A stretch of DNA of 14,785 nt from a virus, in the UHGV virus genome UHGV-1885740; one strand, given 5' to 3'. The notes under the pieces were generated by a model. It worked only from the letters and a program-made list of their open reading frames with translations, did no database searches and was not told the origin of the DNA. Shown piece by piece: positions 1 through 10,210 of this stretch (its first letter is position 1; each line of letters begins with the position of its first letter). The translations under genes were made by a program, and so were the position numbers.

Positions 1-216
1 AGTGCAGCAGGCCAGGCGCATGACCACAACAACGGGAGCACTAATATTGATCCATCTTACGTAATGAAACGGATCCGGACTTGCAAGAATAAAGAGCAGG
101 TGTATAACGTCATAGATTGGCTGGACTCCCTGGGTGATGTGGTTTACAATAGGTTTTCTGCAGCTATTGAAATTCAGTTAGACAGGTTGGACGGGAAAGT
201 ACTGAAAACTTACTGA
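1..216 (+). CDS. hypothetical protein, 3' end only (gene begins upstream of window)
   Basis: Frame 1 is open from position 1 to TGA at 214-216 (71 codons, no internal stop); the 45-bp repeat element starts 2 nt after the stop. Confidence 0.45.
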   Translation, partial: SAAGQAHDHNNGSTNIDPSYVMKRIRTCKNKEQVYNVIDWLDSLGDVVYNRFSAAIEIQLDRLDGKVLKTY

Positions 217-217
217 G

Positions 218-262
218 TTTATTTTTAGATGGCCTTGACTCCAGGGCCATCAATAAAGTAAA
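218..262 (+). repeat. 45-bp direct repeat, copy 1 (promoter-like; TTGACT 235-240, TAAACT 259-264; internal hairpin GATGGCC/GGCCATC 228-251)
   Basis: Identical 45-mer tttatttttagatggccttgactccagggccatcaataaagtaaa recurs at 3953-3997; both copies start 2-3 nt after a stop codon and lie about 45 nt upstream of the next ATG. Confidence 0.8.
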
Positions 263-305
263 CTTTATACTGTTAACACTGAACTAATGCATAGGAGTTA
301 AAACC

Positions 306-551
306 ATGGCAGCACTAATCACCAAATATTATGCCCCTACCAACACCAAAAGCGCCCGTATCATGGTAAAAGGCTTCGGACGTAAAAAGGTGTACACCTG
401 GGATTATTCCCTAGACATGGAAGACAACTACACCAACGCAATGACCGATTTTATTAATGAACTAAATAAGCAGATCTTGACAAATTATAAAATTACCGAT
501 ATTGCCTATATAGGGGAAGGCGGGATCTGTTTTGTCGGTATCGTCAAATAA
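306..551 (+). CDS. hypothetical protein (81 aa)
   Basis: ATG start with AGGAG (293-297) 8 nt upstream; ORF-track frame; downstream of repeat copy 1. Confidence 0.7.
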   Translation: MAALITKYYAPTNTKSARIMVKGFGRKKVYTWDYSLDMEDNYTNAMTDFINELNKQILTNYKITDIAYIGEGGICFVGIVK

Positions 552-626
552 GCTGTTTTTTCGGTGGTCCTGGTAGCAGGGCCATCTATAAAGATAGTTT
601 ATCAACACAATGAAAGGAGAAAGTAC

Positions 627-980
627 ATGATCAGCGGGGCAAGTTTTATTATTGGCGCTATTGCTACGGCTTTAATTGTAAACAAGATCCAATCTAAAAA
701 CGAAAAAGAGAGCAACGCGCTCACAGAATACCCATTTTGGGTATTCAACGACAAGGAAGACTACATTATCAAGTACAAGAATGAGAAGGGCGACCAGGTA
801 ACACCGCGACCGATCCCGGCTTACAAGATGCAAGAAACACTATACCGCCTAAAGGCTGGAGGCGCAAAAATCGTAGACTTTTGGGGATATGATTGCAAGG
901 ATCAGGAGGTTATAAAACGGCGTATCCGGGCGATTCAGACAAATATTGAGATCAGTAAGGGGGAAAGTTATGAAAATTAA
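627..980 (+). CDS. hypothetical membrane protein (117 aa, N-terminal hydrophobic helix ISGASFIIGAIATALIV)
   Basis: ORF-track frame 564-980 begins at GTG; the internal ATG at 627 has AGGAG (615-619) 7 nt upstream, so the start was moved there. Confidence 0.65.
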   Translation: MISGASFIIGAIATALIVNKIQSKNEKESNALTEYPFWVFNDKEDYIIKYKNEKGDQVTPRPIPAYKMQETLYRLKAGGAKIVDFWGYDCKDQEVIKRRIRAIQTNIEISKGESYEN

Positions 981-1167
981 TTTCGAAAAAATTGTAAAGC
1001 GATCTCATGATTCCGAAGAGTTGCCGGAACGCCGCCAGCGCAACAATAAACTGAATAAGCCAAAAAGATTTGGGAAGATCTGGCGGAATCATTATGATCG
1101 TAAATTACCTGGCCTGCTTTTGGAACGTGAACGACAGGCGGAACGGTACCGCCATAAAGACAAATAA
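970..1167 (+). CDS. hypothetical basic protein (65 aa)
   Basis: ORF-track frame 946-1167 begins at TTG; ATG at 970 follows AAGGGGGA (956-963); overlaps the stop of the upstream gene; followed by a terminator. Confidence 0.55.
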   Translation: MKINFEKIVKRSHDSEELPERRQRNNKLNKPKRFGKIWRNHYDRKLPGLLLERERQAERYRHKDK

Positions 1168-1175
1168 CAACCAAC

Positions 1176-1204
1176 GCCCCGCCATTGTGCGGGGCTTTTT
1201 ATTT
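1176..1204 (+). terminator. intrinsic terminator
   Basis: Stem GCCCCGC/GCGGGGC with loop CATTGT followed by TTTTTATTT, 9 nt after the stop at 1167. Confidence 0.8.
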
Positions 1205-1337
1205 CTATCCTACGAATAGCGCCCCTGGTTGGCCCCACAAACGCCACAAAAGCCCCTACCTATGCAATCCCCTTTATTGACCTGAAAACATCACCCAGGG
1301 CCGTTTTATGGTGTTAAAAATATCTTTTATTTAAAGC

Positions 1338-1366
1338 TTGACACCTTGGAATCGCCTGGATATACT
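1338..1366 (+). promoter_or_regulatory. sigma70-like promoter (TTGACA-17-TATACT)
   Basis: TTGACA 1338-1343, 17-nt spacer, TATACT 1361-1366, AT-rich upstream; precedes the Shine-Dalgarno site and ATG at 1402. Confidence 0.75.
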
Positions 1367-1401
1367 AACCACATCAAAGCAAGAAGGAAGGAGTAAACGC
1401 C

Positions 1402-1752
1402 ATGCGTAAATTAAAAAATTTTGATAAAGTCGATGTTGTCCTGAATAATTTTTACTACTGCAATAATAAGGCCGTTTGGTGGCGTGATAGTTCCACCGAT
1501 AAAGTTAAAGCTCGCTTTCTCCAAGGGCACTGGCAAGGCCGTCCAGTGATTAAAATCCTGGGGCAATTGGTAGCGTTTAAAAATTGCCGCCGTGTTGATG
1601 ACGTTGAAGAGATTCTAAACATTTTACGCCACAATAATTTAAAAAAAATAGTGTTGACAAGTAAGTCTCAACAAGTATACTTAAGCACACAGGCGGGAAA
1701 ACTTCCAGCCACTAACAAAGAAAATAGGAGAAAATATCATGACCACCGTTAA
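1402..1752 (+). CDS. hypothetical protein (116 aa)
   Basis: ATG with AAGGAAGGAG upstream; ORF track; 3' end overlaps the next gene start by 14 nt. Confidence 0.7.
   Translation: MRKLKNFDKVDVVLNNFYYCNNKAVWWRDSSTDKVKARFLQGHWQGRPVIKILGQLVAFKNCRRVDDVEEILNILRHNNLKKIVLTSKSQQVYLSTQAGKLPATNKENRRKYHDHR
1654..1681 (+). promoter_or_regulatory. sigma70-like promoter (TTGACA-16-TATACT) with A-tract upstream
   Basis: TTGACA 1654-1659 and TATACT 1676-1681, preceded by AATAATTTAAAAAAAATA; lies inside the 3' end of CDS 1402-1752. Confidence 0.7.
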
Positions 1753-2362
1753 CATTACTACAGGTTACAATTTATCTTTCGACGTGCTGACCGACGAACA
1801 AAAAGAAAAAGCTGTTGAAATGGTCCGCGAAAGAGAAGAACACAGCGGGGATAACTTTTTTGCAGAAAGTGTAATTGAATACTATAAAGAATATGTTTTT
1901 CCAGAGTACGGGCTTGAAGATACCAAGGTACAGTGGTCCGGCTTTTGGTGTCAAGGCGACGGCGCATCAATTAGCGCTGAAAATGTAAACTTAGAAAAAT
2001 TCTTGCGTAAGGTTAAAGCGCTTACAAAATTTCGCTCAATTAGACACTTGTTCGGCACAATGCACGATGGCGAACTATCAGCCAGCGTTGAACGTATCCC
2101 GTTTAGCCATTATCATCACGAAAACACAATAGGCGGGTGCATCGATACCAACTGGCTAGACCTGACCACCAAGCAAGAGGATAAAGTTGAAGAGCTGGAA
2201 GAGCTGATCACCGAGACGGTACGGGAGCTATCCCGCAAGGTTTACGTAGACCTGGAGCAGGCCTATCTTGAACAATTCACTACCGAAAACCTGATCGGCC
2301 TTATCGAGGCCAATGATTGGCGGTTTGATGTGGATGAGTATGGCGAGATGACTTTTTCATAA
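1739..2362 (+). CDS. hypothetical acidic protein (207 aa; largest gene in the window)
   Basis: ATG with TAGGAG (1725-1730) 8 nt upstream; ORF track; E/D-rich C-terminal half; no family recognised by eye. Confidence 0.8.
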   Translation: MTTVNITTGYNLSFDVLTDEQKEKAVEMVREREEHSGDNFFAESVIEYYKEYVFPEYGLEDTKVQWSGFWCQGDGASISAENVNLEKFLRKVKALTKFRSIRHLFGTMHDGELSASVERIPFSHYHHENTIGGCIDTNWLDLTTKQEDKVEELEELITETVRELSRKVYVDLEQAYLEQFTTENLIGLIEANDWRFDVDEYGEMTFS

Positions 2363-2370
2363 ATAAAGTG

Positions 2371-2398
2371 TTGCAATAACCTAAAAACCTGCTATATT
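2371..2398 (+). promoter_or_regulatory. sigma70-like promoter (TTGCAA-16-TATATT)
   Basis: TTGCAA 2371-2376, TATATT 2393-2398; followed by a GC hairpin at 2408-2426, then AAGAGG and ATG at 2452. Confidence 0.65.
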
Positions 2399-2451
2399 AA
2401 AACTCAAGGGGCAAGACGTTTGCCCCCACACAAAACAAAGAGGAAAACATC

Positions 2452-2832
2452 ATGAAAAACACTACTAAAGCTATTGACACCGTTATGTTTAACCTGGTTA
2501 CCTTTCGCGAGGATATGAAAGATCTTCCACGTGAAACAGTGTGCGATCACATTGAAAACTATCGCAAACTAATCAAAGAGTTGCCTTTAAAACGTGACCA
2601 GTATGCGGCTAACGCCATGCTTAATGCCATGATCAAAAAGATGATTCAGTGTGATTTAACTCTGGCCTATGACTATGCGGGTGGTCGTTTTGCAGTATAC
2701 AATCAGCCCGTGCCCGGTATGGGCACCACCGAAGAATTGCACGCGCTCAATCTAAAACAAGACGTATGGGATAACATGCCCCGCGTGGTGGTGTGGGCAG
2801 AAAGCGGAAAGATTTACGGCGATAATTTTTAA
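2452..2832 (+). CDS. hypothetical protein (126 aa)
   Basis: ATG with AAAGAGG 2437-2443; ORF track. Confidence 0.8.
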   Translation: MKNTTKAIDTVMFNLVTFREDMKDLPRETVCDHIENYRKLIKELPLKRDQYAANAMLNAMIKKMIQCDLTLAYDYAGGRFAVYNQPVPGMGTTEELHALNLKQDVWDNMPRVVVWAESGKIYGDNF

Positions 2833-2841
2833 TCAGGTAAC

Positions 2842-2867
2842 AGGCGGCATATTTGCCGCCTTATTGT
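2842..2867 (+). terminator. probable intrinsic terminator (weak U-tract)
   Basis: Stem AGGCGGC/GCCGCCT with loop ATATTT followed by TATTGTT; 10 nt after the stop at 2832. Confidence 0.5.
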
Positions 2868-2896
2868 TAAACAGAACTGCAAAAGAGGTACATAGA

Positions 2897-3268
2897 ATGG
2901 AATTTATTATTTTGGCTGTAGTAGTTGCCTTGTTCAACGCCTGGATCGCTGGCAAGATGGGTAGATCCGCCTTTTTATGGTTTATTATATCTATTTTCCT
3001 GGGGGTGGTTGCAACTATTGTACTTGTTATCCTTGCAATTGTTGACAAGGGGAATAATAGAAAGGGTAAAGTATTTTCAGACCTGTACGACGCTCAAACG
3101 TTTGTCAACGCCTATTATAGTGATCTTCCAGTCTCCCTACGCTGCAGCCTGGCACAACAAGTTTTCGATGAGGCTAAAACCAGAGATCAAGCCCATGAGA
3201 TATGTTTAACTGAGGCGGATCGCCTATTTGAGAGGAATAGAAAATATGTGGGCCAACCGTTTAAATAA
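2897..3268 (+). CDS. hypothetical membrane protein (123 aa, two N-terminal transmembrane helices)
   Basis: ORF-track frame 2864-3268 begins at TTG; ATG at 2897 has AAGAGG (2883-2888) 8 nt upstream; helices IILAVVVALFNAWIA and FLWFIISIFLGVVATIVLVILAIV. Confidence 0.7.
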   Translation: MEFIILAVVVALFNAWIAGKMGRSAFLWFIISIFLGVVATIVLVILAIVDKGNNRKGKVFSDLYDAQTFVNAYYSDLPVSLRCSLAQQVFDEAKTRDQAHEICLTEADRLFERNRKYVGQPFK

Positions 3269-3491
3269 TGCCACGTTAATTAATCCCTTTAGTGAAGATT
3301 TGAAGCCAGCCGCCTGGCGTGATGGATTCAATAACGAACGCTTTATTTTCAAGCCTGATCTTGAGGAATTTTATAACAATGGATCGAACAACAGCGGAGA
3401 TAATTTTTCTTGGGATGTGCGTGGTGATGGTACTCCTGGGGGCCATTGTAGATCGCGTCACTACTACCAGAAGGAAAGGGGGAGACGATGA
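3246..3491 (+). CDS. hypothetical protein (81 aa)
   Basis: ORF-track frame 3228-3491 begins at TTG; ATG at 3246 follows GAGAGGAA; its stop overlaps the next ATG as ATGA (3488-3491). Confidence 0.5.
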   Translation: MWANRLNNATLINPFSEDLKPAAWRDGFNNERFIFKPDLEEFYNNGSNNSGDNFSWDVRGDGTPGGHCRSRHYYQKERGRR

Positions 3492-3607
3492 CAACCAAGG
3501 ATAAGCCATGCACCGATAAGGTGCGCCGCGTTATGGTATGGCTTGAGATTATCGCCCTTGAAATATTGCTAGGCGTAGGGATGTACTTTATCGCTGTAAG
3601 TAACTAA
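3488..3607 (+). CDS. small membrane peptide (39 aa, MTTKDKPCTDKVRRVMVWLEIIALEILLGVGMYFIAVSN)
   Basis: Below the ORF-track size cutoff; ATG preceded by purine-rich AAGGAAAGGGGGAG; ATGA overlap with the upstream stop; terminator follows 5 nt after its stop. Confidence 0.45.
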   Translation: MTTKDKPCTDKVRRVMVWLEIIALEILLGVGMYFIAVSN

Positions 3608-3611
3608 GAAC

Positions 3612-3640
3612 GGCCCCCGATCATGGGGGCCTATCTTTTA
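3612..3640 (+). terminator. intrinsic terminator (A11 run follows, possibly bidirectional)
   Basis: Stem GGCCCCC/GGGGGCC with loop GATCAT, then TATCTTTT and AAAAAAAAAAA (3640-3651). Confidence 0.75.
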
Positions 3641-3665
3641 AAAAAAAAAAATTACTTCCGGGGTG

Positions 3666-3694
3666 TTGCAATCCGGTCCGGAATGTGGATAATA
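3666..3694 (+). promoter_or_regulatory. sigma70-like promoter (TTGCAA-17-ATAATA)
   Basis: TTGCAA 3666-3671, ATAATA 3689-3694; 5' hairpin GGGGA/TCCCC at 3704-3718; AAAGGAG before ATG at 3750. Confidence 0.7.
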
Positions 3695-3749
3695 ACAATC
3701 AACGGGGAGCTAATCCCCACCACCACAAAAACCAGAAAGGAGAAACAAA

Positions 3750-3950
3750 ATGAGCAACAATATCCGCGTTATTAACTTCAAAAAAGAAGAAAAAATTGCC
3801 GTGCTGATTGACGGTCAAGAAATCTTCAAGGGCGACTATGAAGATCATCAAACGGCGATTAGTATCACTCGCGTGATTGGTTACCATAATTTTTACCCTC
3901 AAGGCGCTGAGGCAGCAGTAAAACGAATTAAGGAGATTGTAGGCCTGTAA
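3750..3950 (+). CDS. hypothetical protein (66 aa)
   Basis: ATG with AAAGGAG 3736-3742; ORF track. Confidence 0.75.
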   Translation: MSNNIRVINFKKEEKIAVLIDGQEIFKGDYEDHQTAISITRVIGYHNFYPQGAEAAVKRIKEIVGL

Positions 3951-3952
3951 AA

Positions 3953-3997
3953 TTTATTTTTAGATGGCCTTGACTCCAGGGCCATCAATAAAGTAAA
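3953..3997 (+). repeat. 45-bp direct repeat, copy 2 (promoter-like; TTGACT 3970-3975)
   Basis: Identical to 218-262; starts 3 nt after the stop at 3950; upstream of CDS 4042-4341. Confidence 0.8.
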
Positions 3998-4041
3998 TTT
4001 AAACCCTGTTAAAATAATCAGTGCAAAAAGGAGTAATGATC

Positions 4042-4341
4042 ATGTTTATCCAGGCTAATAATCTTTATTTCTTTGATGGTCAGATCGTAGACGGCGTGGA
4101 GGTGGAAATCACCGGGTGCCCTGGCGGTCAGGTTATGACTTTTCGGAATAATGCCTTTGATGATTCTCATATCGTTATGAGAATGGAAGTTAGTAAGCTG
4201 GATGACAAGAAAACACTTATCGACTATTCCGTCAAAGATCATCCAGACTACCACATGATCTATGGTGATTTGTGCATTGTTGACCGTGACAAGGTGGGCG
4301 GCATTGTGATCGCTATTGTGAACGATGTTTTCTCAAACTAA
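4042..4341 (+). CDS. hypothetical protein (99 aa)
   Basis: ORF-track frame 4021-4341 begins at GTG; AGGAG 4029-4033 gives an 8-nt spacing to the ATG at 4042 (the ATG at 4036 is only 2 nt away). Confidence 0.7.
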   Translation: MFIQANNLYFFDGQIVDGVEVEITGCPGGQVMTFRNNAFDDSHIVMRMEVSKLDDKKTLIDYSVKDHPDYHMIYGDLCIVDRDKVGGIVIAIVNDVFSN

Positions 4342-4358
4342 TTTCAGCAGGTGATTTT

Positions 4359-4439
4359 ATGAAAGTAAAACTATATTACCTTAATGAGCTTAACCCCCTT
4401 GCCCAGGTCCGCGCCCTGGCAGGGCCTGCAGCGATATAA
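4359..4439 (+). CDS. possible short ORF (26 aa, MKVKLYYLNELNPLAQVRALAGPAAI)
   Basis: ATG 5 nt after AGGTGA; ends 6 nt before a strong terminator; contains a CAGGGCC palindrome; could be a leader peptide or non-coding. Confidence 0.25.
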   Translation: MKVKLYYLNELNPLAQVRALAGPAAI

Positions 4440-4445
4440 TCACAT

Positions 4446-4479
4446 AAAGGCTATGCGGTTGCATAGCCTTTATTATTTT
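4446..4479 (+). terminator. intrinsic terminator
   Basis: 11-bp stem AAAGGCTATGC/GCATAGCCTTT with loop GGTT, followed by ATTATTTT. Confidence 0.8.
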
Positions 4480-4526
4480 AGCGTTACAGCGGCCCCAAGG
4501 CGCTTAAAAAATTTTTAAAGAAGTAC

Positions 4527-4555
4527 TTGCATCAAGTCCTACAATATGGATAATA
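4527..4555 (+). promoter_or_regulatory. sigma70-like promoter (TTGCAT-17-ATAATA) with AT-rich upstream element
   Basis: TTGCAT 4527-4532, ATAATA 4550-4555, upstream AAAAAATTTTTAAAG; 5' GC hairpin at 4566-4579; TAGGAG before ATG at 4612. Confidence 0.7.
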
Positions 4556-4611
4556 GGACGTGTCAGGGGGGCGGCCCCCAATCATTAACCGGATAGATAG
4601 GAGTTAAAATC

Positions 4612-4896
4612 ATGGCTATTGTCACCGTTGGCGATGTAGTGGAAATGGAAGCAAAATACTTAAAAGCGGGTATGCATATCCTACGGAATGATCAAGAATT
4701 GTTATTAACGATGGTAGACTATAATCCCGGCCAGGATTATCCAAGCATCGACTACTTTTTTGAGTATGTTGATGAAGAATTGAAAGAGGATGAGGCTTAT
4801 CAGGGTGAATTCTGCAATTTCTTTTGCCCTGATGAGGTTGTAAAAGTTATCTATCAACCTGGCGTACCTTTCCCGCTGCACGCTATCAATAAATAA
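4612..4896 (+). CDS. hypothetical acidic protein (94 aa)
   Basis: ATG with TAGGAG 4598-4603; ORF track. Confidence 0.8.
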   Translation: MAIVTVGDVVEMEAKYLKAGMHILRNDQELLLTMVDYNPGQDYPSIDYFFEYVDEELKEDEAYQGEFCNFFCPDEVVKVIYQPGVPFPLHAINK

Positions 4897-4950
4897 ACCT
4901 GGCGGGGCCGAAAAGGCCCCAATTATGAAAATAAAGAGAGGTAAATCATC

Positions 4951-5184
4951 ATGATGGAACAAATTAAACGCGCTGAGGCTATTAATGGCAATGTGATCTA
5001 TTTTGTCAGCAAAAACGAAAAAGGCGTACCATATGCGGCGGTAATAGTACAACCTGACGGCGATTATTGGTTTACTGTATACGGATCTTATTCTTTTGGG
5101 CGTCCAGTGCATGATAAAATTTTGAAAGTAGCGAACCCTACCGGGAAAAATATCACAGCAGAAAAATTTTTTGAAAATAGTTGA
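4951..5184 (+). CDS. hypothetical protein (77 aa)
   Basis: ATG with AGAGAGG upstream; ORF track; its TGA stop (5182-5184) sits inside the -35 hexamer of the next promoter. Confidence 0.75.
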   Translation: MMEQIKRAEAINGNVIYFVSKNEKGVPYAAVIVQPDGDYWFTVYGSYSFGRPVHDKILKVANPTGKNITAEKFFENS

Positions 5185-5209
5185 CATGACCATATAAGAC
5201 TGTAGTATA
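5181..5209 (+). promoter_or_regulatory. sigma70-like promoter (TTGACA, -10 TAGTAT/AGTATA)
   Basis: TTGACA 5181-5186, -10 around 5203-5209; 5' hairpin GGGGC/GCCCC at 5220-5234; AAGAGG before ATG at 5261. Confidence 0.65.
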
Positions 5210-5260
5210 TAAATCAAAGGGGGCAACAAGCCCCACCAACCACAAAGAGGATAAAAAATC

Positions 5261-5440
5261 ATGGCTATTATTGCAAAGACTGAGATCGTAGGCTTAGATT
5301 CTATTCTTCTCGCATATGAGGAAGCTATAGAAATGTATGTGGTTTCCTATGGTGAATATATCCGTGAATATAAATCTATTGATCTAGCTTTTGAATGTTA
5401 TATTCGCCAGGTCAATAAAGCATATGATGATTATCGTTAA
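5261..5440 (+). CDS. hypothetical protein (59 aa)
   Basis: Below the ORF-track cutoff; ATG with AAAGAGG 8 nt upstream; own promoter and 5' hairpin; ordinary codon usage. Confidence 0.65.
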   Translation: MAIIAKTEIVGLDSILLAYEEAIEMYVVSYGEYIREYKSIDLAFECYIRQVNKAYDDYR

Positions 5441-5446
5441 AATAGT

Positions 5447-5474
5447 TTGACAACAGTCAACAATCTGGTAAAGT
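5447..5474 (+). promoter_or_regulatory. sigma70-like promoter (TTGACA-16-TAAAGT)
   Basis: TTGACA 5447-5452; -10 TAAAGT 5469-5474; 5' hairpin GCGGGAA/TTCCCGC at 5487-5503; GAGGG before ATG at 5523. Confidence 0.6.
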
Positions 5475-5522
5475 GTACTACATAGCGCGGGAATACTTCC
5501 CGCCATTAATGAGGGTAGAATC

Positions 5523-5627
5523 ATGTTAGATAAAATTTTCACGGTTGTAGTAGTTGGCCTGGCATTATCGGTTGGAGTGGTTGCAACTATGGCTAACATG
5601 ATCCTATCTTCCCATGGTATCGGTTAA
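5523..5627 (+). CDS. small hydrophobic peptide (34 aa, MLDKIFTVVVVGLALSVGVVATMANMILSSHGIG)
   Basis: Not in the ORF track (too short); has its own promoter, 5' hairpin and GAGGG 7 nt upstream; a single predicted transmembrane helix. Confidence 0.5.
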   Translation: MLDKIFTVVVVGLALSVGVVATMANMILSSHGIG

Positions 5628-5637
5628 GGTGAATCAA

Positions 5638-5853
5638 ATGATCACGAATAAGACAGGTAAAACGGAATTCTTGCGAGGCTTGCAGATCGGCAAGCCAGAG
5701 ATCTGGCATTGCACTAAAACACCACGTGACGAAATGAAAGACTTCACCGCCACGCTGCAACGGGTAAAGATATCCATCACGCAGAAAAAGGCCTTGATAG
5801 TGGTGGAAGGTGAGATCCCGCAAACCGTTGTTATAGTTGAGCGTACAGCATAG
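5638..5853 (+). CDS. hypothetical protein (71 aa)
   Basis: ORF-track frame 5614-5853; ATG at 5638 is 5 nt after AAGGTGA (5626-5632), whereas the ATG at 5614 has no Shine-Dalgarno site. Confidence 0.6.
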   Translation: MITNKTGKTEFLRGLQIGKPEIWHCTKTPRDEMKDFTATLQRVKISITQKKALIVVEGEIPQTVVIVERTA

Positions 5854-5944
5854 TTTAATTTATAGCGATACCTGAAAATTAACCAATAAATCATAAACAG
5901 GCGGTTACCGCCGCCTTAAACGTAGCAGAAAGAGGCTAGACACA

Positions 5945-6229
5945 ATGAAAAAGATGATCGCAGTAGTTGCCCTGGTTGTTGGACTTAATGCGCCTGTAAT
6001 GGCTAAAGAGCTGGCAAAAGAGGTTAATCTAACGGATATCCATGCCGTCAATCAAATCGGGGTTACTTATCGCTTATGCCTTGCCGCTAAAACTTTTAAT
6101 GACGGCACAACAGAGTACTACGGATTCGAGGGTATCCGGTGCGGTGAGCTTGCTCGCGACCTTAAGGAAGATCCAGACCTGGAAGATCTGCCCATCACCG
6201 TAAACGGTAAAGCTTACGTAAACCGTTAA
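5945..6229 (+). CDS. hypothetical secreted/periplasmic protein (94 aa, N-terminal signal peptide)
   Basis: MKKMIAVVALVVGLNAPVMA followed by KE looks like a Sec signal peptide with an AxA-type cleavage site; no lipobox cysteine; AAAGAGG upstream. Confidence 0.75.
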   Translation: MKKMIAVVALVVGLNAPVMAKELAKEVNLTDIHAVNQIGVTYRLCLAAKTFNDGTTEYYGFEGIRCGELARDLKEDPDLEDLPITVNGKAYVNR

Positions 6230-6231
6230 CC

Positions 6232-6366
6232 ATGAGAAAGATAATCATCACCTTGGGGATTGTGGCTGGATCGCTGGCGCTCTTTCCCCTTATGGTTAGG
6301 TATGTGCTAATCAGTATTGTCCTGGTAGTCAGTGATCTATTGGGAACGGTTGGCACCTTGTTTTAA
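6232..6366 (+). CDS. small membrane protein (44 aa, two hydrophobic segments)
   Basis: ATG 2 nt after the upstream stop, no obvious Shine-Dalgarno site (coupling assumed); MRKIIITLGIVAGSLALFPLMVRYVLISIVLVVSDLLGTVGTLF. Confidence 0.4.
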   Translation: MRKIIITLGIVAGSLALFPLMVRYVLISIVLVVSDLLGTVGTLF

Positions 6367-6377
6367 AGAGCGATAAA

Positions 6378-6569
6378 ATGAATATCGAACAAGTTAGAAA
6401 GGTATTGGCGGTACTGCGTTATCATAATCATAGAAAGGTTATAGACGATCCTGATTATGTTGATTCAAGTCTGGAAGGGGATACACTGCAAGCCATAAGC
6501 AACATGCAAGAATTGCTCAAGCGCATGACAGAGAAAAACCGACCGGACTACATAGGCGAAAAAATATAA
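6378..6569 (+). CDS. hypothetical protein (63 aa)
   Basis: ATG with AAAGAG upstream; ORF track; terminator 17 nt downstream. Confidence 0.65.
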   Translation: MNIEQVRKVLAVLRYHNHRKVIDDPDYVDSSLEGDTLQAISNMQELLKRMTEKNRPDYIGEKI

Positions 6570-6585
6570 TCCTTATAAACTACAA

Positions 6586-6614
6586 AACAGGGCTTGCAAT
6601 GGTCCTGTTTTTTG
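6586..6614 (+). terminator. intrinsic terminator
   Basis: Stem AACAGGG/TCCTGTT with loop CTTGCAATGG followed by a T6 run. Confidence 0.7.
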
Positions 6615-6697
6615 TTATACTTGTTTCACGGCAGGCACCTGGCGACGGGTGGAGACAATCACCGGGCCTGCCTGTCATATAAGAACTATAAAAACCG

Positions 6698-6726
6698 TTG
6701 ACATCTGCCATGGGGTGGGGTAACAT
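6698..6726 (+). promoter_or_regulatory. sigma70-like promoter (TTGACA-17-TAACAT)
   Basis: TTGACA 6698-6703, TAACAT 6721-6726; 5' hairpin GGGCA/TGCCC at 6738-6751; CAGGAGAGAGG before ATG at 6781. Confidence 0.7.
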
Positions 6727-6780
6727 TTATCTTGAAGGGGCAAAAGTGCCCACACAATAACCAGGAGAGAGGAAAACACT

Positions 6781-7053
6781 ATGTCAAGCTGGATTAATCA
6801 AGAAGTCGAATCACGTTTTAATGCTATTTGGGATCTCATCGAAAAAGAAGACGGCACATCAAGCCCCTACCTCAACAATTTGGAATTCCATTTTGTGGAA
6901 GCGATGAACGCAGAACATGATCACGAAGGTGGCGCGGATGAGTTCGCTAAAGGTTATGGCTTTAACAATGCCAACGAAATGATCGAGGCGGTCGTACTCC
7001 AGGCTGAGGAAGATTATCAATTAAAAACACTTGAATTCTGCCGCCATAAGTAA
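6781..7053 (+). CDS. hypothetical acidic protein (90 aa)
   Basis: ATG with a purine-rich Shine-Dalgarno site; ORF track. Confidence 0.8.
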   Translation: MSSWINQEVESRFNAIWDLIEKEDGTSSPYLNNLEFHFVEAMNAEHDHEGGADEFAKGYGFNNANEMIEAVVLQAEEDYQLKTLEFCRHK

Positions 7054-7059
7054 TAAGAT
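7031..7059 (+). promoter_or_regulatory. sigma70-like promoter (TTGAAT-17-TAAGAT), overlapping the 3' end of CDS 6781-7053
   Basis: TTGAAT 7031-7036, TAAGAT 7054-7059; 5' hairpin GGGCC/GGCCC at 7068-7081; AGAGAGAAAG before ATG at 7114. Confidence 0.55.
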
Positions 7060-7113
7060 AATGACACGGGCCAAAAGGCCCACTAATCAGAACCACACAA
7101 AGAGAGAAAGAAA

Positions 7114-7332
7114 ATGACAACCCGTAAAATTAAAGTTGTTTGCATTGAATCGACTGGGGGCGCTTTTGTAGTTGGTCAGGAATATAATGCGGTTTTAATG
7201 GGTACGGATTGGAAGGTTAAAGGCCTTAATGGTTACGAGTACGGCACTACTTGCGGCTTGCGTGGTCGAATCGGATACGTGAGTTTAGACAATAAAGAAA
7301 AATTTGTTTTCGACACCGTTGTGAGTAAATAG
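7114..7332 (+). CDS. hypothetical protein (72 aa)
   Basis: ATG with a purine-rich Shine-Dalgarno site; ORF track. Confidence 0.75.
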   Translation: MTTRKIKVVCIESTGGAFVVGQEYNAVLMGTDWKVKGLNGYEYGTTCGLRGRIGYVSLDNKEKFVFDTVVSK

Positions 7333-7409
7333 CATGAATTGCTAAAGACTGATCTGCGAACTGCTGTATTATCAACTAATCAAAACGAACCACATAAAGA
7401 GGAAACATC

Positions 7410-7672
7410 ATGAAACGTCTGGATCAGCTTAAATTAGTTCAGTACATGGCCTACAGAATTCTTGAAGTCCAGAAAGGTAGCAAAAAAGAGGTTTGCGAGA
7501 AAGCTTATAAGATCTTCACTCGTAAAAAGATGATTGGATGTTACGCCAGACCAAAAAGGCTGACATCTTGGGGTACCTGGAAGAAGAGATCCGCCTTGAA
7601 GAGCAAGAAGAGATCCGCCGTAGTGAGGCAGATTATCAGGCAGCTTGGGAAAACTGGATGAGCAACAAATAA
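7410..7672 (+). CDS. hypothetical protein with an apparent frame change (frame 0 from 7410; -1 frame from about 7526 to TAA 7670-7672)
   Basis: The ORF-track frame (7410-7661) turns K/R-rich with rare AGA/AGG codons after about 7530, while the -1 frame reads DILGYLEEEIRLEEQEEIRRSEADYQAAWENWMSNK with ordinary codons. A T-AAA-AAG motif sits at 7523-7529, and a 15-bp direct repeat lies at 7581-7595 and 7606-7620. Alternatively two genes, the second starting at ATG 7538. Confidence 0.5.
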
Positions 7673-7691
7673 TACAACAAGGTGCACGGTC

Positions 7692-7717
7692 AGGGGCTTA
7701 AAGCCCCTTTCTTTTTG
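7692..7717 (+). terminator. intrinsic terminator closing the rightward gene module
   Basis: Stem AGGGGC/GCCCCT with loop TTAA followed by TTCTTTTTG. Confidence 0.8.
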
Positions 7718-8322
7718 TCTCCTCTTTTCCTACCACAAATGGCCCCGCCTGGCAAATGGAATAATCAACAAGCCAGCAATTAACCCCACTGTACAAACAT
7801 ACATATAAAATAACTATTGCATAATTTTTCATTGTGTGGTAGCAGGGCCATTTTTACACGTTTTTCCTTCCAAAATTGCACGTAATGCAGCATTTGCACA
7901 AAATTTAACCTGATGCATATCTTCAATAGCTTGTCAACAACTAAAAATTCTTATAAGTCATACACTTACATAACTACAAAAGCGTTTTCTACGTGAAAAA
8001 TCGAGTATAACTATAGCCGCCAGATCTCAGAATTTACGTACGCTCGCCATTCTATAGCCTGCTAAGCATTTATTCCAACCATAGAATAACGGAATAGTCA
8101 ATACCTGCATAAAATAATTATTCGTGTAAACTGCATAACATAAATCGGCCCAAGTGTCAACATTTTTCGTAAACAGTCTGGAATTGTCACGTTAGGTTAC
8201 CATAAGCAGAGAAATCTTTAGTCGTCTAATGTTTACTGTACGTTACTATACTAACTGGAATCATTAGATGACTAATAGAAAGATAAGAAATAATTAACAA
8301 TACAATTATTCTATCTGTAACA

Positions 8323-8593
8323 ATAAGGCAACTATGCAAACGAATGGCATGGCGCGACGGAGTCGCGACATAATATAAAAGCAGTAACCATCACCCCCGT
8401 GATAGTTTGTCTGCAATCTATTAATCAGATCATAGTTGCCTTGTATTCAGTTAATCATGACATAACAAGCAAGGCAACTATAGATCTGCTAATAGTTGCC
8501 CTGCTTTTATATTATGTCATGCTAATTATAATCAGTGCGATTATTGTCATGTATAATTATTGTCATGCAAACGAATGGCATGGCTTATCATTT
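8323..8593. repeat. nested inverted/direct repeat element (about 270 bp)
   Basis: AAGGCAACTAT at 8325-8335 and 8471-8481, with inverted copies at 8432-8442 and 8492-8501; 18-bp direct repeat TGCAAACGAATGGCATGG at 8335-8352 and 8566-8583; 18-bp perfect inverted repeat 8367-8384 / 8501-8518; palindrome CGCGAC-GGA-GTCGCG around 8354-8368. Confidence 0.8.
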
Positions 8594-8610
8594 TTGAGTA
8601 AATAATCTAT

Positions 8611-8716
8611 ACGTTAACAGTAAGCTATGTAAACTATTGGGAATGTAAACAGTAAAGGTCATGAACAGTAAGCGAGCGAATAGTAATAGCGTGAATAGTG
8701 ACAGCGTAAACAGTCA
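8611..8716 (+). repeat. tandem iteron-like array (about 7 units, 15-16 bp period, core GTAAACAGT / GAAYAGT)
   Basis: Cores at 8614, 8629, 8645, 8661, 8677, 8692 and 8706; further isolated copies in both orientations at about 8169, 8843, 8989 and 9719. Confidence 0.75.
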
Positions 8717-9298
8717 TGCATGTCAATTATGTTCAGTGTGTTTAATGTGCTTAAAGTGTCATATTATGTCAGACAAGTTTTTCTCCTCTTTGTCAAGTGC
8801 TGCATGAAAAATTTACAAGCTTGTATGGTAGCATTTTTGCGGCCCTGTTTACATTCAGTGTTGTATGTATAATCCTTGTTGTGTGGGCGTTTAGACGTCT
8901 GGACGGTCAGAAGTCTGCAGGTCAATATCTAATCTATTGGCTGCTAACTATATCCCCCCACAAATAATAAGAAATATAATTGTTATGTGCGTAAACAGTA
9001 ACCTATGTTATCAATCCCTGTATGTATCGCCAGTGGTGCGCATAATGGGTATTATGTTAAATTGCCCGTAATGATAAAGATTCTCACAATGATAGGTATT
9101 CTCATTCACCCTCACAAAATAGATTGCAAATGTTGTGCCACTGTGTGAACGGCCTCACCTATTAATTTGCCTCACTGCCTCGATATTTGAGAATTATTAT
9201 AAGAATGAGAAGTATTCCCATTCCGTCCGCCTGGCAGCACTCCAGTCGCTACCGCTCATGACAGGGCAGAACTGGGCCCATTCAGATATTTCTGACTG

Positions 9299-9567
9299 AC
9301 TCTTCAGGTCTGTGTGGGAAAAGACAACCTCTCCGGCGGGACAGGGGGATATCTGAGGAGAAATTGCAGGTCAATTAAAAAATTTACGTGGTGTATGAAG
9401 CGATCTTCAGGCAAGGTATGTATTATGGGATGAAACCCTCTTCAGGCAATGATATTTGTGGGTGTGATATTTGCTGGAAAGCCAGATATGACGGGACTCC
9501 CGGCGGGGCAGGGGTAGTACAGACAGGGAAAATATGGGGATGTAGTTGGGTAAATTGATCAGGCAGG
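9299..9567 (+). repeat. cluster of CTCTTCAGG-family motifs plus a GC-rich direct repeat CCGGCGGG(R)CAGGGG
   Basis: CTCTTCAGG at 9300-9308 and 9438-9446 (also 9850-9858 and 10500-10508); GATCTTCAGG 9402-9411; GATCAGGCAGG 9557-9567; CTCCGGCGGGACAGGGGG 9331-9348 against CTCCCGGCGGGGCAGGGG 9497-9514. Confidence 0.7.
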
Positions 9568-10210
9568 TAGAGTATGGAATATGTTACAGGTATGTTAAAT
9601 AGGGAGGCTGAATATCTGTAGGATTTGTGTGTAAAATCAAAGACTTAAGTGGTGTTGCGGTATTTTCTATAAATAATTCAAGTTTAATAGGTAATATTTG
9701 TCTCTATTCGCTTTGTGTGGTAAACAGATTCAGATGAGATTGGTTTACAAGTGTATACATAATATACAAATTAAAGATACAAGAAACCCCCTCCCCCTTC
9801 GGCTACCATTCACCTTTTCCTCTGACTGGTACTTAAACACTTATTCAGACTCTTCAGGTTATCACCCATATATCATATGGCAGTGACTGGTGTCCTCCGG
9901 CCCCTCTTTCGTCACCCGTCCGCTTCGCCATGCTAATGCCATAGCCAATGGTTCGGTTGTTCACCCTGTTCACTCAGGTGTATCTCCATACCCCTTCAAA
10001 CCGAAGAGAACAGAAAACCCGAATTACTCGGTAAAAGAAAAGAGAAGAACTTAATTTTATCAGGATAGGCAAGAATGTCAAGGCATGACTGCTCACTAAA
10101 CAAGCAAACAGTCATGTGTGGAAGGTAAGTGATTGTGGTGGTGGGAAATTTAGTTGAAAGATGTGTTATAGGTGCGCTTCCAGCACTTTGGCCGGGCAGC
10201 TAATTGTGCG

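Follow-up and report, generated by a model that had tools for sequence, protein, structure and literature searches.

Bacterial repeated intergenic hairpins of the REP/BIME kind, which are transcribed at the 3' ends of cistrons, can stabilise the upstream mRNA and act as substrates for recombination. A second group of hairpins is cut by RNase III. The substrates of the E. coli enzyme typically contain two helical turns, and internal loops restrict cleavage to one strand, leaving protective 3' hairpins (PMC1540722; PMC3867540). The shortest distance from cut to tetraloop that gave good reactivity in a minimal substrate was 11 bp. A G-C pair at the proximal-box position beside the cut can suppress cleavage (PMC1540722). 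The R1 sites of phages T7 and T3 fold into a lower stem and a 9-bp upper stem, which are separated by a 2x3 internal loop with the letters UA/AAU and capped by a tetraloop. In the PeSL elements of T4-like phages, an AT-rich tract with a stop codon is followed by a stem-loop, which has G-T pairs and may overlap the -35 position, and then by a promoter and the Shine-Dalgarno sequence and ATG of the next gene (PMC2839356).

The element described here adds to kinds that are already known and does not establish a novel one; judged by its architecture, its nearest counterparts are the signals at which RNase III cuts in T7 and T3. It was found in a window of 14,785 nt (the whole stretch of DNA that was analysed) from an rV5-like coliphage (Vequintavirus), comprising the early region and the end of the genome. 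The plus strand carries all of the genes within positions 1-7700. The three copies of the element, hairpins A, C and B in order of position, are placed between open reading frames, in stretches flanked by promoter-like and terminator-like sites, and are presumably transcribed. The neighbouring features were as follows.

1-216, plus strand: 3' end of the cistron located 5' of hairpin A, homologue of rV5 ORF194 and ime_114 (PHROG 13245)
306-551, plus strand: 81-aa cistron between hairpins A and C, rV5 ORF191 (PHROG 3199)
627-980, plus strand: 117-aa cistron 3' of hairpin C, rV5 ORF190
3666-3693: promoter-like site upstream of the rV5 ORF179 homologue
3750-3950, plus strand: 66-aa cistron 5' of hairpin B, rV5 ORF179
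4042-4341, plus strand: 99-aa cistron 3' of hairpin B
4444-4473: terminator-like site, the next feature after the 99-aa cistron

The initial annotation had reported a perfectly duplicated 45-mer. This sequence, TTTATTTTTAGATGGCCTTGACTCCAGGGCCATCAATAAAGTAAA, occurred exactly twice, at 218-262 and 3953-3997, on the plus strand in both cases; any match was seen in 0/200 shuffled controls. Its position relative to the adjacent codons also was as reported. Copy A is preceded at a distance of 2 nt by the end of a TGA stop codon (214-216) and followed after 43 nt by the ATG at 306; for copy B the corresponding distances are 3 nt from a TAA stop codon (3948-3950) and 44 nt to the ATG at 4042. The inverted repeat GATGGCC/GGCCATC was present, but the extent of 7 bp assigned to it was too short, the real repeat being much longer. 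When folded as RNA it forms a 10-bp upper stem and an AU-rich second stem, which extends over the full length of the 45-mer and slightly into its flanks. A third, diverged copy, which had been overlooked, was located at 553-597; it includes the 577-585 motif site and matches the 45-mer at 34 of 45 positions. The 45-mer is the core of a predicted sense-strand RNA hairpin of 51-55 nt, which is present in three copies in the window, in early operons. The parts of these hairpins, as supported by the fold and the covariance model, are all on the plus strand.

215-265: hairpin A, core 45-mer 218-262
215-225/255-265: hairpin A, lower stem, which takes in the upstream stop TGA 214-216
226-227 (UA)/252-254 (AAU): hairpin A, internal loop
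228-237/242-251: hairpin A, upper stem, with tetraloop ACUC at 238-241
548-602: hairpin C, the diverged copy, core 553-597
548-560/590-602: hairpin C, lower stem, which takes in the stop TAA 549-551
561-562 (UC)/587-589 (UAU): hairpin C, internal loop
563-572 (GGUGGUCCUG)/577-586 (CAGGGCCAUC): hairpin C, upper stem, with two G.U pairs
573-576: hairpin C, tetraloop GUAG
3950-4000: hairpin B, core 45-mer 3953-3997, folded as hairpin A
3950-3960/3990-4000: hairpin B, lower stem, which takes in the last base of the stop TAA 3948-3950
3961-3962/3987-3989: hairpin B, internal loop
3963-3972/3977-3986: hairpin B, upper stem, with tetraloop at 3973-3976

Each hairpin begins at the stop codon of the preceding cistron, and 25-42 nt separate its end from the following start codon. 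The predicted duplex comprises about two helical turns with 21-23 pairs, 10 in the upper stem and 11-13 in the AU-rich lower stem, and is supported by covariation; an asymmetric 2x3 internal loop separates the two stems and a tetraloop closes the top. This internal loop was found in all intact copies except two, and in the 45-mer type its letters are UA/AAU with few exceptions. The common fold was obtained for all copies on the plus strand, with free energies of -19.8 to -28.2 kcal/mol (z -5.3 to -7.5), and the minus strand folded far more poorly (-8 to -18 kcal/mol). Hairpin A had a value of -25.8 kcal/mol (z -7.5) and a covariance-model score of 82.3 bits; hairpin C had a value of -28.2 kcal/mol (z -7.3; minus strand only -8.5 to -10) and a score of 73.5 bits; hairpin B scored 82.8 bits. 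The flanking bases of hairpin B are AAA/UUU in place of the GAG/CUU of hairpin A, with pairing retained, and the substitutions that distinguish hairpin C from A and B are wobble-compatible or compensatory.

Across 21 distinct copies, 96.6% of the cells in the alignment were paired, compared to 37-57% when the partners were slid. Two-sided changes were seen at four pairs; the upper stem was 100% paired, its three changes being wobble-only, and all of the non-Watson-Crick pairs were G.U on the plus strand. The restriction of mismatches to G.U, together with the compensatory changes, points to selection on RNA, and the strand asymmetry of the G.U pairs to selection on the transcript. Among the sampled relatives the stems of intact copies were invariant and variation was almost entirely confined to the tetraloop; 8 of 91 columns were variable in the elements and 101 of 455 (approximately 22%) in the flanks. 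The 3' arm with the bases that follow it, CAGGGCCAUC-W-AUAAAG (as DNA CAGGGCCATC-W-ATAAAG), was invariant in intact copies of both types with few exceptions, namely an A-to-G substitution shared by two copies and, in two further copies, insertions of a single base; the 5' arm differed between the 45-mer type and the C type. Conservation of the 3' arm and the bases after it exceeds what pairing by itself would require, a hint of a sequence-specific partner. No Rfam family matched at the hairpins at E values up to 1.

The element family was confined to rV5-like genomes, which usually have three copies of the 45-mer and a diverged one. In total, 350 copies were found in 121 phage records; each 137-kb genome contains 3-4 copies, all within one early region. 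A search of 185,579 bacterial and archaeal genomes revealed no copy of the element.

The initial annotation had offered three readings, namely that the element defines co-regulated promoters with an operator of their own, that it serves in recombination, or that it marks a processing site. Its observation was confirmed in part and its interpretation was partly supported, with processing faring best, recombination holding in a passive sense and the promoter faring poorly. The processing signal fitted best because the covariation-supported sense-strand hairpin has the architecture of the T7 and T3 RNase III sites. By analogy with these sites, the best explanation, to which we would give about an even chance, is that the hairpins are RNase III processing and mRNA-stability signals of the T7/T3 type that also serve as recombination repeats. 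Host RNase III would make a single cut, in the 3' half of the internal loop (near 252-254 in hairpin A, 587-589 in C and 3987-3989 in B). The cut would separate the cistrons, leaving the upstream message with a protective 3' hairpin and giving the downstream message a new 5' end.

The likeness extends to both position and structure. Like the T7 and T3 sites, the hairpins are sense-strand structures between the cistrons of a coliphage early polycistronic region, beginning at or beside the upstream stop codon and ending 20-50 nt before the next start; the annotated T3 RNase III sites likewise begin at the stop codon of the preceding gene and in many cases overlap promoters. Both kinds have approximately two helical turns and an asymmetric internal loop beneath a 9-10-bp upper stem with a tetraloop, and the 2x3 loop letters UA/AAU are identical to those of R1. 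Several mutually similar copies, some of which overlap promoters, are found per genome in both cases (R0.3, R0.5, R1, R1.1, R1.3 and late sites in T7/T3). When both strands of the complete T3 genome were searched with filters off, a covariance model built only from rV5-type copies gave one match, at 2903-2962 with 20 bits and an E value of 0.067 from a roughly calibrated model; this match corresponds to the site annotated at 2908-2956 as 'RNase III recognition site R1'. In T7, four of the five matches fell on the intergenic hairpins of R0.3, R1, R1.1 and R18.5. The T7 matches scored 9.7-13.5 bits, and palindromes of no relation to the element in a control part of the window scored as high. Scores at control level indicate architectural likeness, not homology.

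There also were differences from the T7 and T3 sites. No sequence homology was evident, and the letters of the upper stem are similar only when the arms are swapped. The rV5-type lower stem is longer and almost purely A-U, and the upper stem has 10 bp with a basal G-C pair. There are only 3-4 copies, in one region, and RNase III cleavage is predicted here. Unlike the T7 group, the rV5-like phage belongs to the large myoviruses and is not known to depend at any stage on an RNA polymerase other than that of the host. The upper stem of 10 bp plus loop nucleotides compares with the 11-bp minimum of the minimal substrate; the pairs just under the loop-closing one are U-A and U.G, as in T7 R1.1, and the G-C pair that adjoins the internal loop could damp cleavage. 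The literature searched contained no mapping of cleavage or of transcript ends for any rV5-like phage. The hairpins also share with REP/BIME elements their repeated, intergenic position at the 3' ends of cistrons; however, REP elements are host-chromosomal, have hundreds of copies and differ in sequence.

Intrinsic (Rho-independent) terminators were considered as another class. The bases after the upper stem are AAUAAAG, and those after the full hairpin are CUUUAUAC, UUUAAACC or CAACAC; since no U tract follows, the hairpins are unlikely to be intrinsic terminators, and a terminator scan of the window did not call them.

Among the alternatives to RNase III processing, an element that is primarily a sigma-70 early promoter, with the inverted repeat as an operator or simply tolerated, is unlikely, if still the least improbable. 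An UP-like T tract would assist it, and transcription from starts near 271 and 4006 would give each downstream gene its own start. The reported TTGACT hexamer, 18-nt spacer and TAAACT or TAAATT hexamer were present in both copies of the 45-mer, downstream of an AT-rich stretch, as two candidate weak promoters.

235-264, plus strand: candidate weak sigma-70 promoter in hairpin A, -35 TTGACT at 235-240, 18 nt, -10 TAAACT at 259-264
3970-3999, plus strand: candidate weak sigma-70 promoter in hairpin B, -35 TTGACT at 3970-3975, 18 nt, -10 TAAATT at 3994-3999

The corresponding stretch of phage Gotham carries a PhagePromoter annotation. In approximately 25 copies of the 45-mer type the -35 hexamer varied only as TTGACT/A/G or TTGATA, with the -10 TAAAYT kept; every copy has TTGA, all except the TTGATA copy have C as the fifth base, and changes occur at the sixth hexamer position and the next base. 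In hairpin A the -35 candidate spans the upper stem and the tetraloop, and the first two loop bases, AC, are constant in all but one of the 45-mer-type copies, as would fit a conserved -35 TTGAC; loop position 2 is variable in the C type, in contrast to the 45-mer type. However, the match is only 9/12 with a non-optimal 18-nt spacer, and such matches occur at chance level in this AT-rich window (25 found, 19 ± 5 expected). Copy C retains the whole hairpin yet reads CTGGTA where the -35 would be. The strong early promoters of the phage differ, having TTGACA, 16-17 nt and TATACT, usually followed by a GC-rich 5'-UTR hairpin, and the curated rV5 record has no promoter annotated at this point. Selection seems to act on an RNA that a promoter starting at 271 would not transcribe. 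With a chance-level match, no -35 in the third copy and only 3-4 copies per genome, the proposal of a co-regulated promoter class with an operator is weak, and the element does not represent promoters spread over the genome. Within the processing explanation, the 45-mer type may also, to judge from its sequence, contain a minor weak sigma-70 promoter with its -35 in the loop.

Recombination was upheld in a passive sense only: two copies mark the precise ends of a cassette, and variants of the loop are distributed differently among copies. In rV5, Gotham, AlexBoehm, JEP1 and metagenomic relatives, ORF193 and ORF192 form a cassette of approximately 630 bp between two copies. Most relatives have this cassette, as opposed to the window; it is missing from the window, ime and ECP32, which have one chimeric copy instead. 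Hairpin A is chimeric, its left flank being that of rV5 copy 1 and its right flank that of rV5 copy 2. A single exchange between two copies would have deleted the 630-bp two-gene cassette, or inserted it in other genomes, and loop variants have moved between copies. We propose that the phage's recombination system also uses these long, near-identical direct repeats. An integron attC site was rejected: no GTTRRRY was present in the element or its flanks, the nearest sequences, GTTAACA and GTTAAAA, being a misfit, and the ime annotation contains no integrase.

The cassette also bears on a strict PeSL reading, in which the stem-loop attenuates or terminates upstream transcription and the embedded promoter restarts it, so that each small gene is an insulated, portable module. 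This reading is quite unlikely, even though the layout agrees with the published description (PMC2839356). As in the PeSL of RB49/phi1, T4/PST and KVP40/nt-1, an intergenic repeat extends from an AT-rich stop codon to a Shine-Dalgarno sequence and ATG, with a G-T-paired stem-loop, permitted to lie over the -35 position, and a candidate sigma-70-like promoter. It lies in a plastic region rich in uncharacterised small genes, where relatives differ by a cassette exactly between copies, with a chimeric copy at the junction. Other indels of the region have repeated promoters, terminators or leaders at their boundaries. However, no U tract follows the GC-rich upper stem or the full hairpin, and the structure has no terminator tail. 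Where a PeSL has a strong promoter, the 45-mer type offers the 9/12 match with its 18-nt spacer and copy C offers no match; this half is weak or absent. The published stems are short G/C clamps (GGGG...CCCC), compared to the long bipartite helix of 21-23 bp found here, and there are 3-4 copies, not dozens, all in the plastic early region, where other promoter-plus-hairpin units also were found. The rV5-like phage belongs to another subfamily (Vequintavirinae).

Improbable, in our estimation, is a binding site for a phage-encoded, sequence-specific RNA- or DNA-binding protein, such as an early-gene post-transcriptional regulator, with RNase III uninvolved. The near-invariant 3' arm and following bases in both types, alongside a type-dependent 5' arm, are in its favour, as are the restriction of the family to one phage genus and an orphan 15-mer at 7837 that has the letters of hairpin C. 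However, no candidate protein was found, the neighbouring genes having no recognisable RNA-binding or nuclease domains, and the architecture already fits a host-enzyme substrate. A selfish or neutral repeated palindrome (REP-like, or a miniature mobile element), subject to gene conversion only and with no role in expression, is very improbable: loop variants are shuffled among copy positions across genomes, which shows conversion between copies, and a 5-nt deletion in the stem of one Gotham copy has had no evident effect, but the stems are invariant in the sampled genomes beside flanks with variable columns, the diverged C type preserves the fold by compensatory changes, placement relative to stop and start codons is fixed, and the G.U pairs are strand-asymmetric.

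The motif CAGGGCCRT had five plus-strand matches, where 0.22 were expected, and three of the five are the hairpins. Of the sites listed in the initial annotation, those at 577-585, 1296-1304 and 7843-7851 fitted the motif, but 4420-4428 reads CAGGGCCTG. The wider CAGGGCCAT family was unsupported; the covariance model matched only the three hairpins, both in the window and in the complete genome of a relative. From its sequence the 1296 site looks like chance; it is unconserved in a relative, where it reads CTAGGGCCGT. The 15-mer TGGTAGCAGGGCCAT was, as claimed, common to 571-585 and 7837-7851, and its second occurrence is listed below.

7837-7851, plus strand: orphan 15-mer TGGTAGCAGGGCCAT, identical to the loop and 3' arm of hairpin C

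The orphan had no match to the covariance model of the element and is neither a hairpin nor a family member. It is conserved in relatives, in unstructured non-coding DNA (z 0.26), and may be a relic of an old exchange.

The first 8 kb of the window matched 253 phage records, and the best matches were Vequintavirus (rV5-like) coliphages at 93-95% identity, such as phages ime, rV5 and Gotham. The rV5-like phages are widely used as typing and therapy phages for E. coli O157. The window was organized as follows.

1-7700, plus strand: small early genes in one block, with numerous sigma-70-like promoters and terminators
7700-10100: non-coding genome-end region
Beyond 10100, remainder of the window: leftward genes

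Two copies of a 45-mer in this DNA (218-262 and 3953-3997) were identical, as had been reported in the initial annotation, and zero matches were obtained in any shuffle. Its spacing from the flanking stop and start codons, its TTGACT-18-TAAAYT match and its GATGGCC/GGCCATC repeat were likewise borne out. The CAGGGCC(A/G)T motif that had been listed at 577-585 was present but was not a standalone site; it belonged to a full diverged third copy at 553-597 (34 of 45 positions matching). The three copies, designated hairpins A (215-265), B (3950-4000) and C (548-602), shared one bipartite fold on the plus strand. The lower stem was AU-rich, measured 11-13 bp when a few flanking bases were counted and included the stop codon of the gene upstream; an internal loop with 2 nt in its 5' strand and 3 nt in its 3' strand led to an upper stem of 10 bp, with G.U pairs among them, which was capped by a tetraloop. 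Folding energies of the plus-strand copies were -19.8 to -28.2 kcal/mol (z-scores of -5.3 to -7.5), and the complementary strand folded far more poorly (-8 to -18 kcal/mol).

Covariation was analysed in 21 distinct copies, collected from nine genomes and aligned. Under the imposed structure, 96.6% of cells were paired, compared to 37-57% when the 3' partners were slid by one to three columns. Double-sided changes were found in four lower-stem pairs (U-A to C-G, U-A to G.U, A-U to U-A and A-U to G-C); all three upper-stem differences between copies like A and B (45-mer type) and copies like hairpin C (C type) were wobble-compatible, and the helix was 100% paired. Since the imposed structure was originally derived from one of the 21 aligned sequences and independent events were few, this support is good, not overwhelming. 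The non-Watson-Crick pairs in the plus-strand hairpins were always G.U and never A.C, which points to selection on the sense transcript rather than on a DNA palindrome.

In orthologous intact copies the stems were invariant and nearly all changes fell at tetraloop positions 3 and 4, giving the variants ACUC, ACUU, ACAC, ACGC and ACAU in the 45-mer type and GUAG, GUAA, GUUG and GCUG in the C type. Variable columns numbered 8 of 91 within the elements, compared to 101 of 455 in the flanks. The perfect identity of A and B is thus attributed to constraint together with a shared common loop variant, and is no evidence for a recent duplication. In phage Gotham (L001) the first copy (384-425) lacked the upper stem's 3' arm (GGGCC), and in a metagenomic copy B (L088, 3758-3820) CAG had become CGGG, leaving a 9-bp stem with a 7-nt loop; single copies are thus dispensable or decaying.

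A co-regulated promoter class had also been proposed as one possible reading of the 45-mer. Phage ime, with a complete genome of 137 kb, contained the conserved 14-mer GGCCATCWATAAAG three times, always within this early region, and a covariance model built from the alignment detected only three copies in the window and likewise in ime, which ruled out a genome-wide promoter class. Among GenBank phages, 350 copies of the 45-mer were present in 121 records, mostly three per genome, and all of these phages were rV5-like. Wider scans covered IMG/VR, using a 17-mer, and JGI metagenomes together with 185,579 genomes of bacteria and archaea, using the upper-stem pattern. Many sequences matched the pattern; true members (at least 57 bits) were found only on contigs that looked rV5-like, several of them 137-138 kb in length, and all non-rV5-like matches in these collections scored at most 35 bits. 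Taken together, the covariance-model, GenBank and metagenome results identified a small family confined to one genus. No family in Rfam matched the hairpin. Carriers of the 45-mer included records named 'Campylobacter phage'; about 20 of these (MG0656xx) were 92-95% identical to the rV5-like E. coli phages here, with the hairpins present, and are probably mislabelled or contaminant genomes.

Site 1296 of the proposed motif was rejected as a family member, being invisible to the covariance model and not conserved. The listing of the motif at 4420-4428 was wrong, as the sequence there is CAGGGCCTG. This site was likewise rejected as a family member; it forms another small hairpin's 3' arm and coincides with a 293-bp deletion junction that shows CCCTGGC microhomology. 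The 15-mer at 7837-7851, which contains site 7843, was conserved in relatives, lay within unstructured non-coding DNA and gave no covariance-model match; this orphan may be a relic.

The hairpins lie within operons. Hairpin B was located between ORF179 and the next gene, with a promoter-like sequence upstream (3666-3693) and a terminator-like sequence downstream (4444-4473), and hairpins A and C were located on either side of ORF191, with a terminator-like site downstream (1176-1195). No Vequintavirus transcript maps were found in the searched literature. Two helical turns are typical of substrates for E. coli RNase III, and internal loops in these substrates result in one-strand cutting that leaves a protective 3' hairpin (PMC1540722; PMC3867540). 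The RNase III signals of the T7 group consist of about two turns with an asymmetric internal loop, a 9-10-bp stem and a tetraloop, as does the hairpin here, and T7 intergenic regions adopted the same bipartite form when folded. The 2x3 loop of R1 in T7 and T3 (UA/AAU) is identical in its letters to that of the 45-mer copies. In T3, the annotated RNase III sites also start at the stop codon upstream, and overlap with promoters is frequent among them.

A covariance model of rV5-type copies alone was run against the entire T3 genome with filters off. There was a single match (2903-2962, 20 bits, E 0.067), which corresponded to the 'RNase III recognition site R1' annotated in the record (2908-2956). 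The annotated T3 record was the source of reference coordinates; two T7 records list none. In T7, four of the five matches fell on the hairpins before genes 0.3, 1, 1.1 and 18.5, whose RNase III site names we take to be those of Dunn and Studier (1983); site R1.1 was confirmed by its GCAA tetraloop. The T7 scores did not exceed those that unrelated palindromes gave in a control stretch taken from the window, which argues for likeness of architecture and not for common descent, and the element shares no sequence with the T7-group signals. By this analogy, the chance is roughly even that the element acts as a processing and stability signal of the T7/T3 type and that the cut falls on the 3' side of its internal loop. 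Against this reading, the upper stem is 10 bp, compared to the 11-bp minimum for a minimal substrate, a G-C pair lies at its base, and CAGGGCCAUC-W-AUAAAG is strictly invariant, which may point to a sequence-specific partner. Should the hairpins prove to be RNase III sites, early polycistronic messages of rV5-like phages would be processed as in T7, and the sites would provide a concrete handle on the unequal expression of small, functionally uncharacterized early genes, of which there are dozens.

Every copy of the 45-mer type retained TTGA and TAAAYT, with C as the fifth -35 base in all but one, so that these copies possibly carry a minor promoter, which would be compatible with an RNA role. 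Loop position 2 was variable in the C type, unlike the conserved -35 letters of the 45-mer type, and copy C had no -35 box. PhagePromoter annotates a promoter at the element in Gotham, whereas the curated rV5 record has none there. The sigma-70 match (9 of 12, with an 18-nt spacer) was, however, at chance level for this DNA, and the strong early promoters of the phage are different, having TTGACA, a 16-17 nt spacer and TATACT; a GC-rich hairpin in the 5' UTR usually follows them.

Base 218 was the exact start of many megablast matches. In rV5, Gotham, AlexBoehm, JEP1 and metagenomic relatives, an extra upstream copy and a segment of about 630 bp (ORF193, a sigma-70 promoter, ORF192) were followed by the copy ahead of ORF191. 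A single copy occupied this place in the window, ime and ECP32; its left flank was that of the first rV5 copy and its right flank that of the second. Judging from these flanks, the ORF193-ORF192 difference is a deletion, or the reverse insertion, that arose through exchange within the repeat. Loop variants reappeared at different copy positions in different genomes (ACUU, for example, at copies 1, 2 or B), and rV5 and an IMG/VR relative each had one loop variant common to copies 2 and B; this recurrence indicates conversion between hairpin copies. No swap of the cassette between copies 1 and 2 was found in a metagenomic relative, in which it was 85% identical to that of rV5. The large deletion in rV5_ev146 was rejected as a hairpin-mediated event; its junction was intragenic, with an overlap of 15 bp. 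Short repeated regulatory sequences likewise bounded further differences in this region between the window and its relatives.

5503-5517: 207-bp cassette between two copies of CCATTAATGAGGGTA
7692-7709: 545-bp ORF164 cassette between two terminators
About 1325: 555-bp insertion at a -35 box (TTGACA) in a metagenomic relative
4414-4420: 293-bp deletion inside a 116-aa gene, at CCCTGGC

Repeat-bounded cassette differences are the pattern published for the PeSLs of T4-like phages (PMC2839356; PMC4122927). A PeSL is defined by a stop codon in an AT-rich tract, followed by a stem-loop, a sigma-70-like promoter and a Shine-Dalgarno sequence with ATG; G-T pairs are allowed in the stem-loop, which may overlap the -35 box (PMC2839356). 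The hairpin layout here agreed with this definition, but the promoter part was weak, the helix was longer than PeSL stems, the phage subfamily was different and no sequence was shared. The element would work like a T7-group RNase III signal, and its evolutionary behaviour is like that of a PeSL. No description of this element was found in the searched literature; the concepts involved are already known, and nothing is conceptually new. The cassette polymorphism carries the PeSL idea, that regulatory repeats are recombination linkers for small early genes, beyond the T4-like phages, and accounts for part of the gene-content differences among Vequintavirus genomes that are otherwise 93-95% identical. 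For genome engineering, the hairpin copies represent predictable deletion hot spots.

It is very improbable that the hairpins serve a cassette-shuffling system as dedicated sites of exchange, in a virulent phage outside the T4 group. In such a system, likened to an integron or to the proposed PeSL mini-circle pathway, a phage protein would recognize folded copies, and small early genes would leave as circles and re-insert at other copies. This would explain why letters of the 3' arm are invariant, why there is an orphan half-site (7837-7851) and why the gene between A and C has foreign relatives. Integron attC sites were rejected, as there were no core sites and no integrase. Intrinsic terminators were ruled out, since no U tract follows the hairpins.

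Most of the strong sigma-70-like early promoters on the plus strand had a GC-rich GGGG...CCCC hairpin within about 10 nt of the -10 box, followed by a CAC/ACAAA stretch and then a Shine-Dalgarno sequence. This repeated unit resembles RB49-type PeSLs.

2371-2427, plus strand: promoter and 5'-UTR hairpin
3666-3722, plus strand: promoter and 5'-UTR hairpin
4528-4582, plus strand: promoter and 5'-UTR hairpin
5181-5234, plus strand: promoter and 5'-UTR hairpin
5447-5503, plus strand: promoter and 5'-UTR hairpin
6698-6750, plus strand: promoter and 5'-UTR hairpin

The loop of a terminator hairpin at 6584-6611 (plus strand) contained the -35 box (TTGCAA) of a promoter at 6594-6621. Transcription from this promoter would yield a long GC-rich hairpin (about 6628-6676), with no ORF ahead of the next promoter at 6698, and the transcript (region 6584-6700, plus strand) could be a small RNA.

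The proteins encoded near the hairpins matched only families of unknown function in PHROGs, and their sole Pfam match was to the T7 gene 1.1 family, on an unrelated neighbour. This neighbour, the 65-aa product of 970-1167 (plus strand), matched PF08200 ('Bacteriophage 1.1 protein') with E 2e-11, above the curated cut-off, and its gene is by that match a predicted T7-type early gene inside the rV5-like early region. The 81-aa gene at 306-551 (plus strand), between hairpins A and C, had relatives with 35-46% identity in unrelated phages, among them CAjan-like siphophages, Pseudomonas KIL-like myophages and Klebsiella podophages. Relatives at 60%-90% identity were absent, which suggests that this small early gene spread horizontally.

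The non-coding genome-end region contained a perfect 20-nt direct repeat (8334-8353 and 8565-8584, within 8318-8585). Between its copies were an 18-nt inverted repeat, also perfect (8367-8384 and 8501-8518), and additional repeats that were imperfect. The repeats at 8318-8585 may be linked to packaging or replication.
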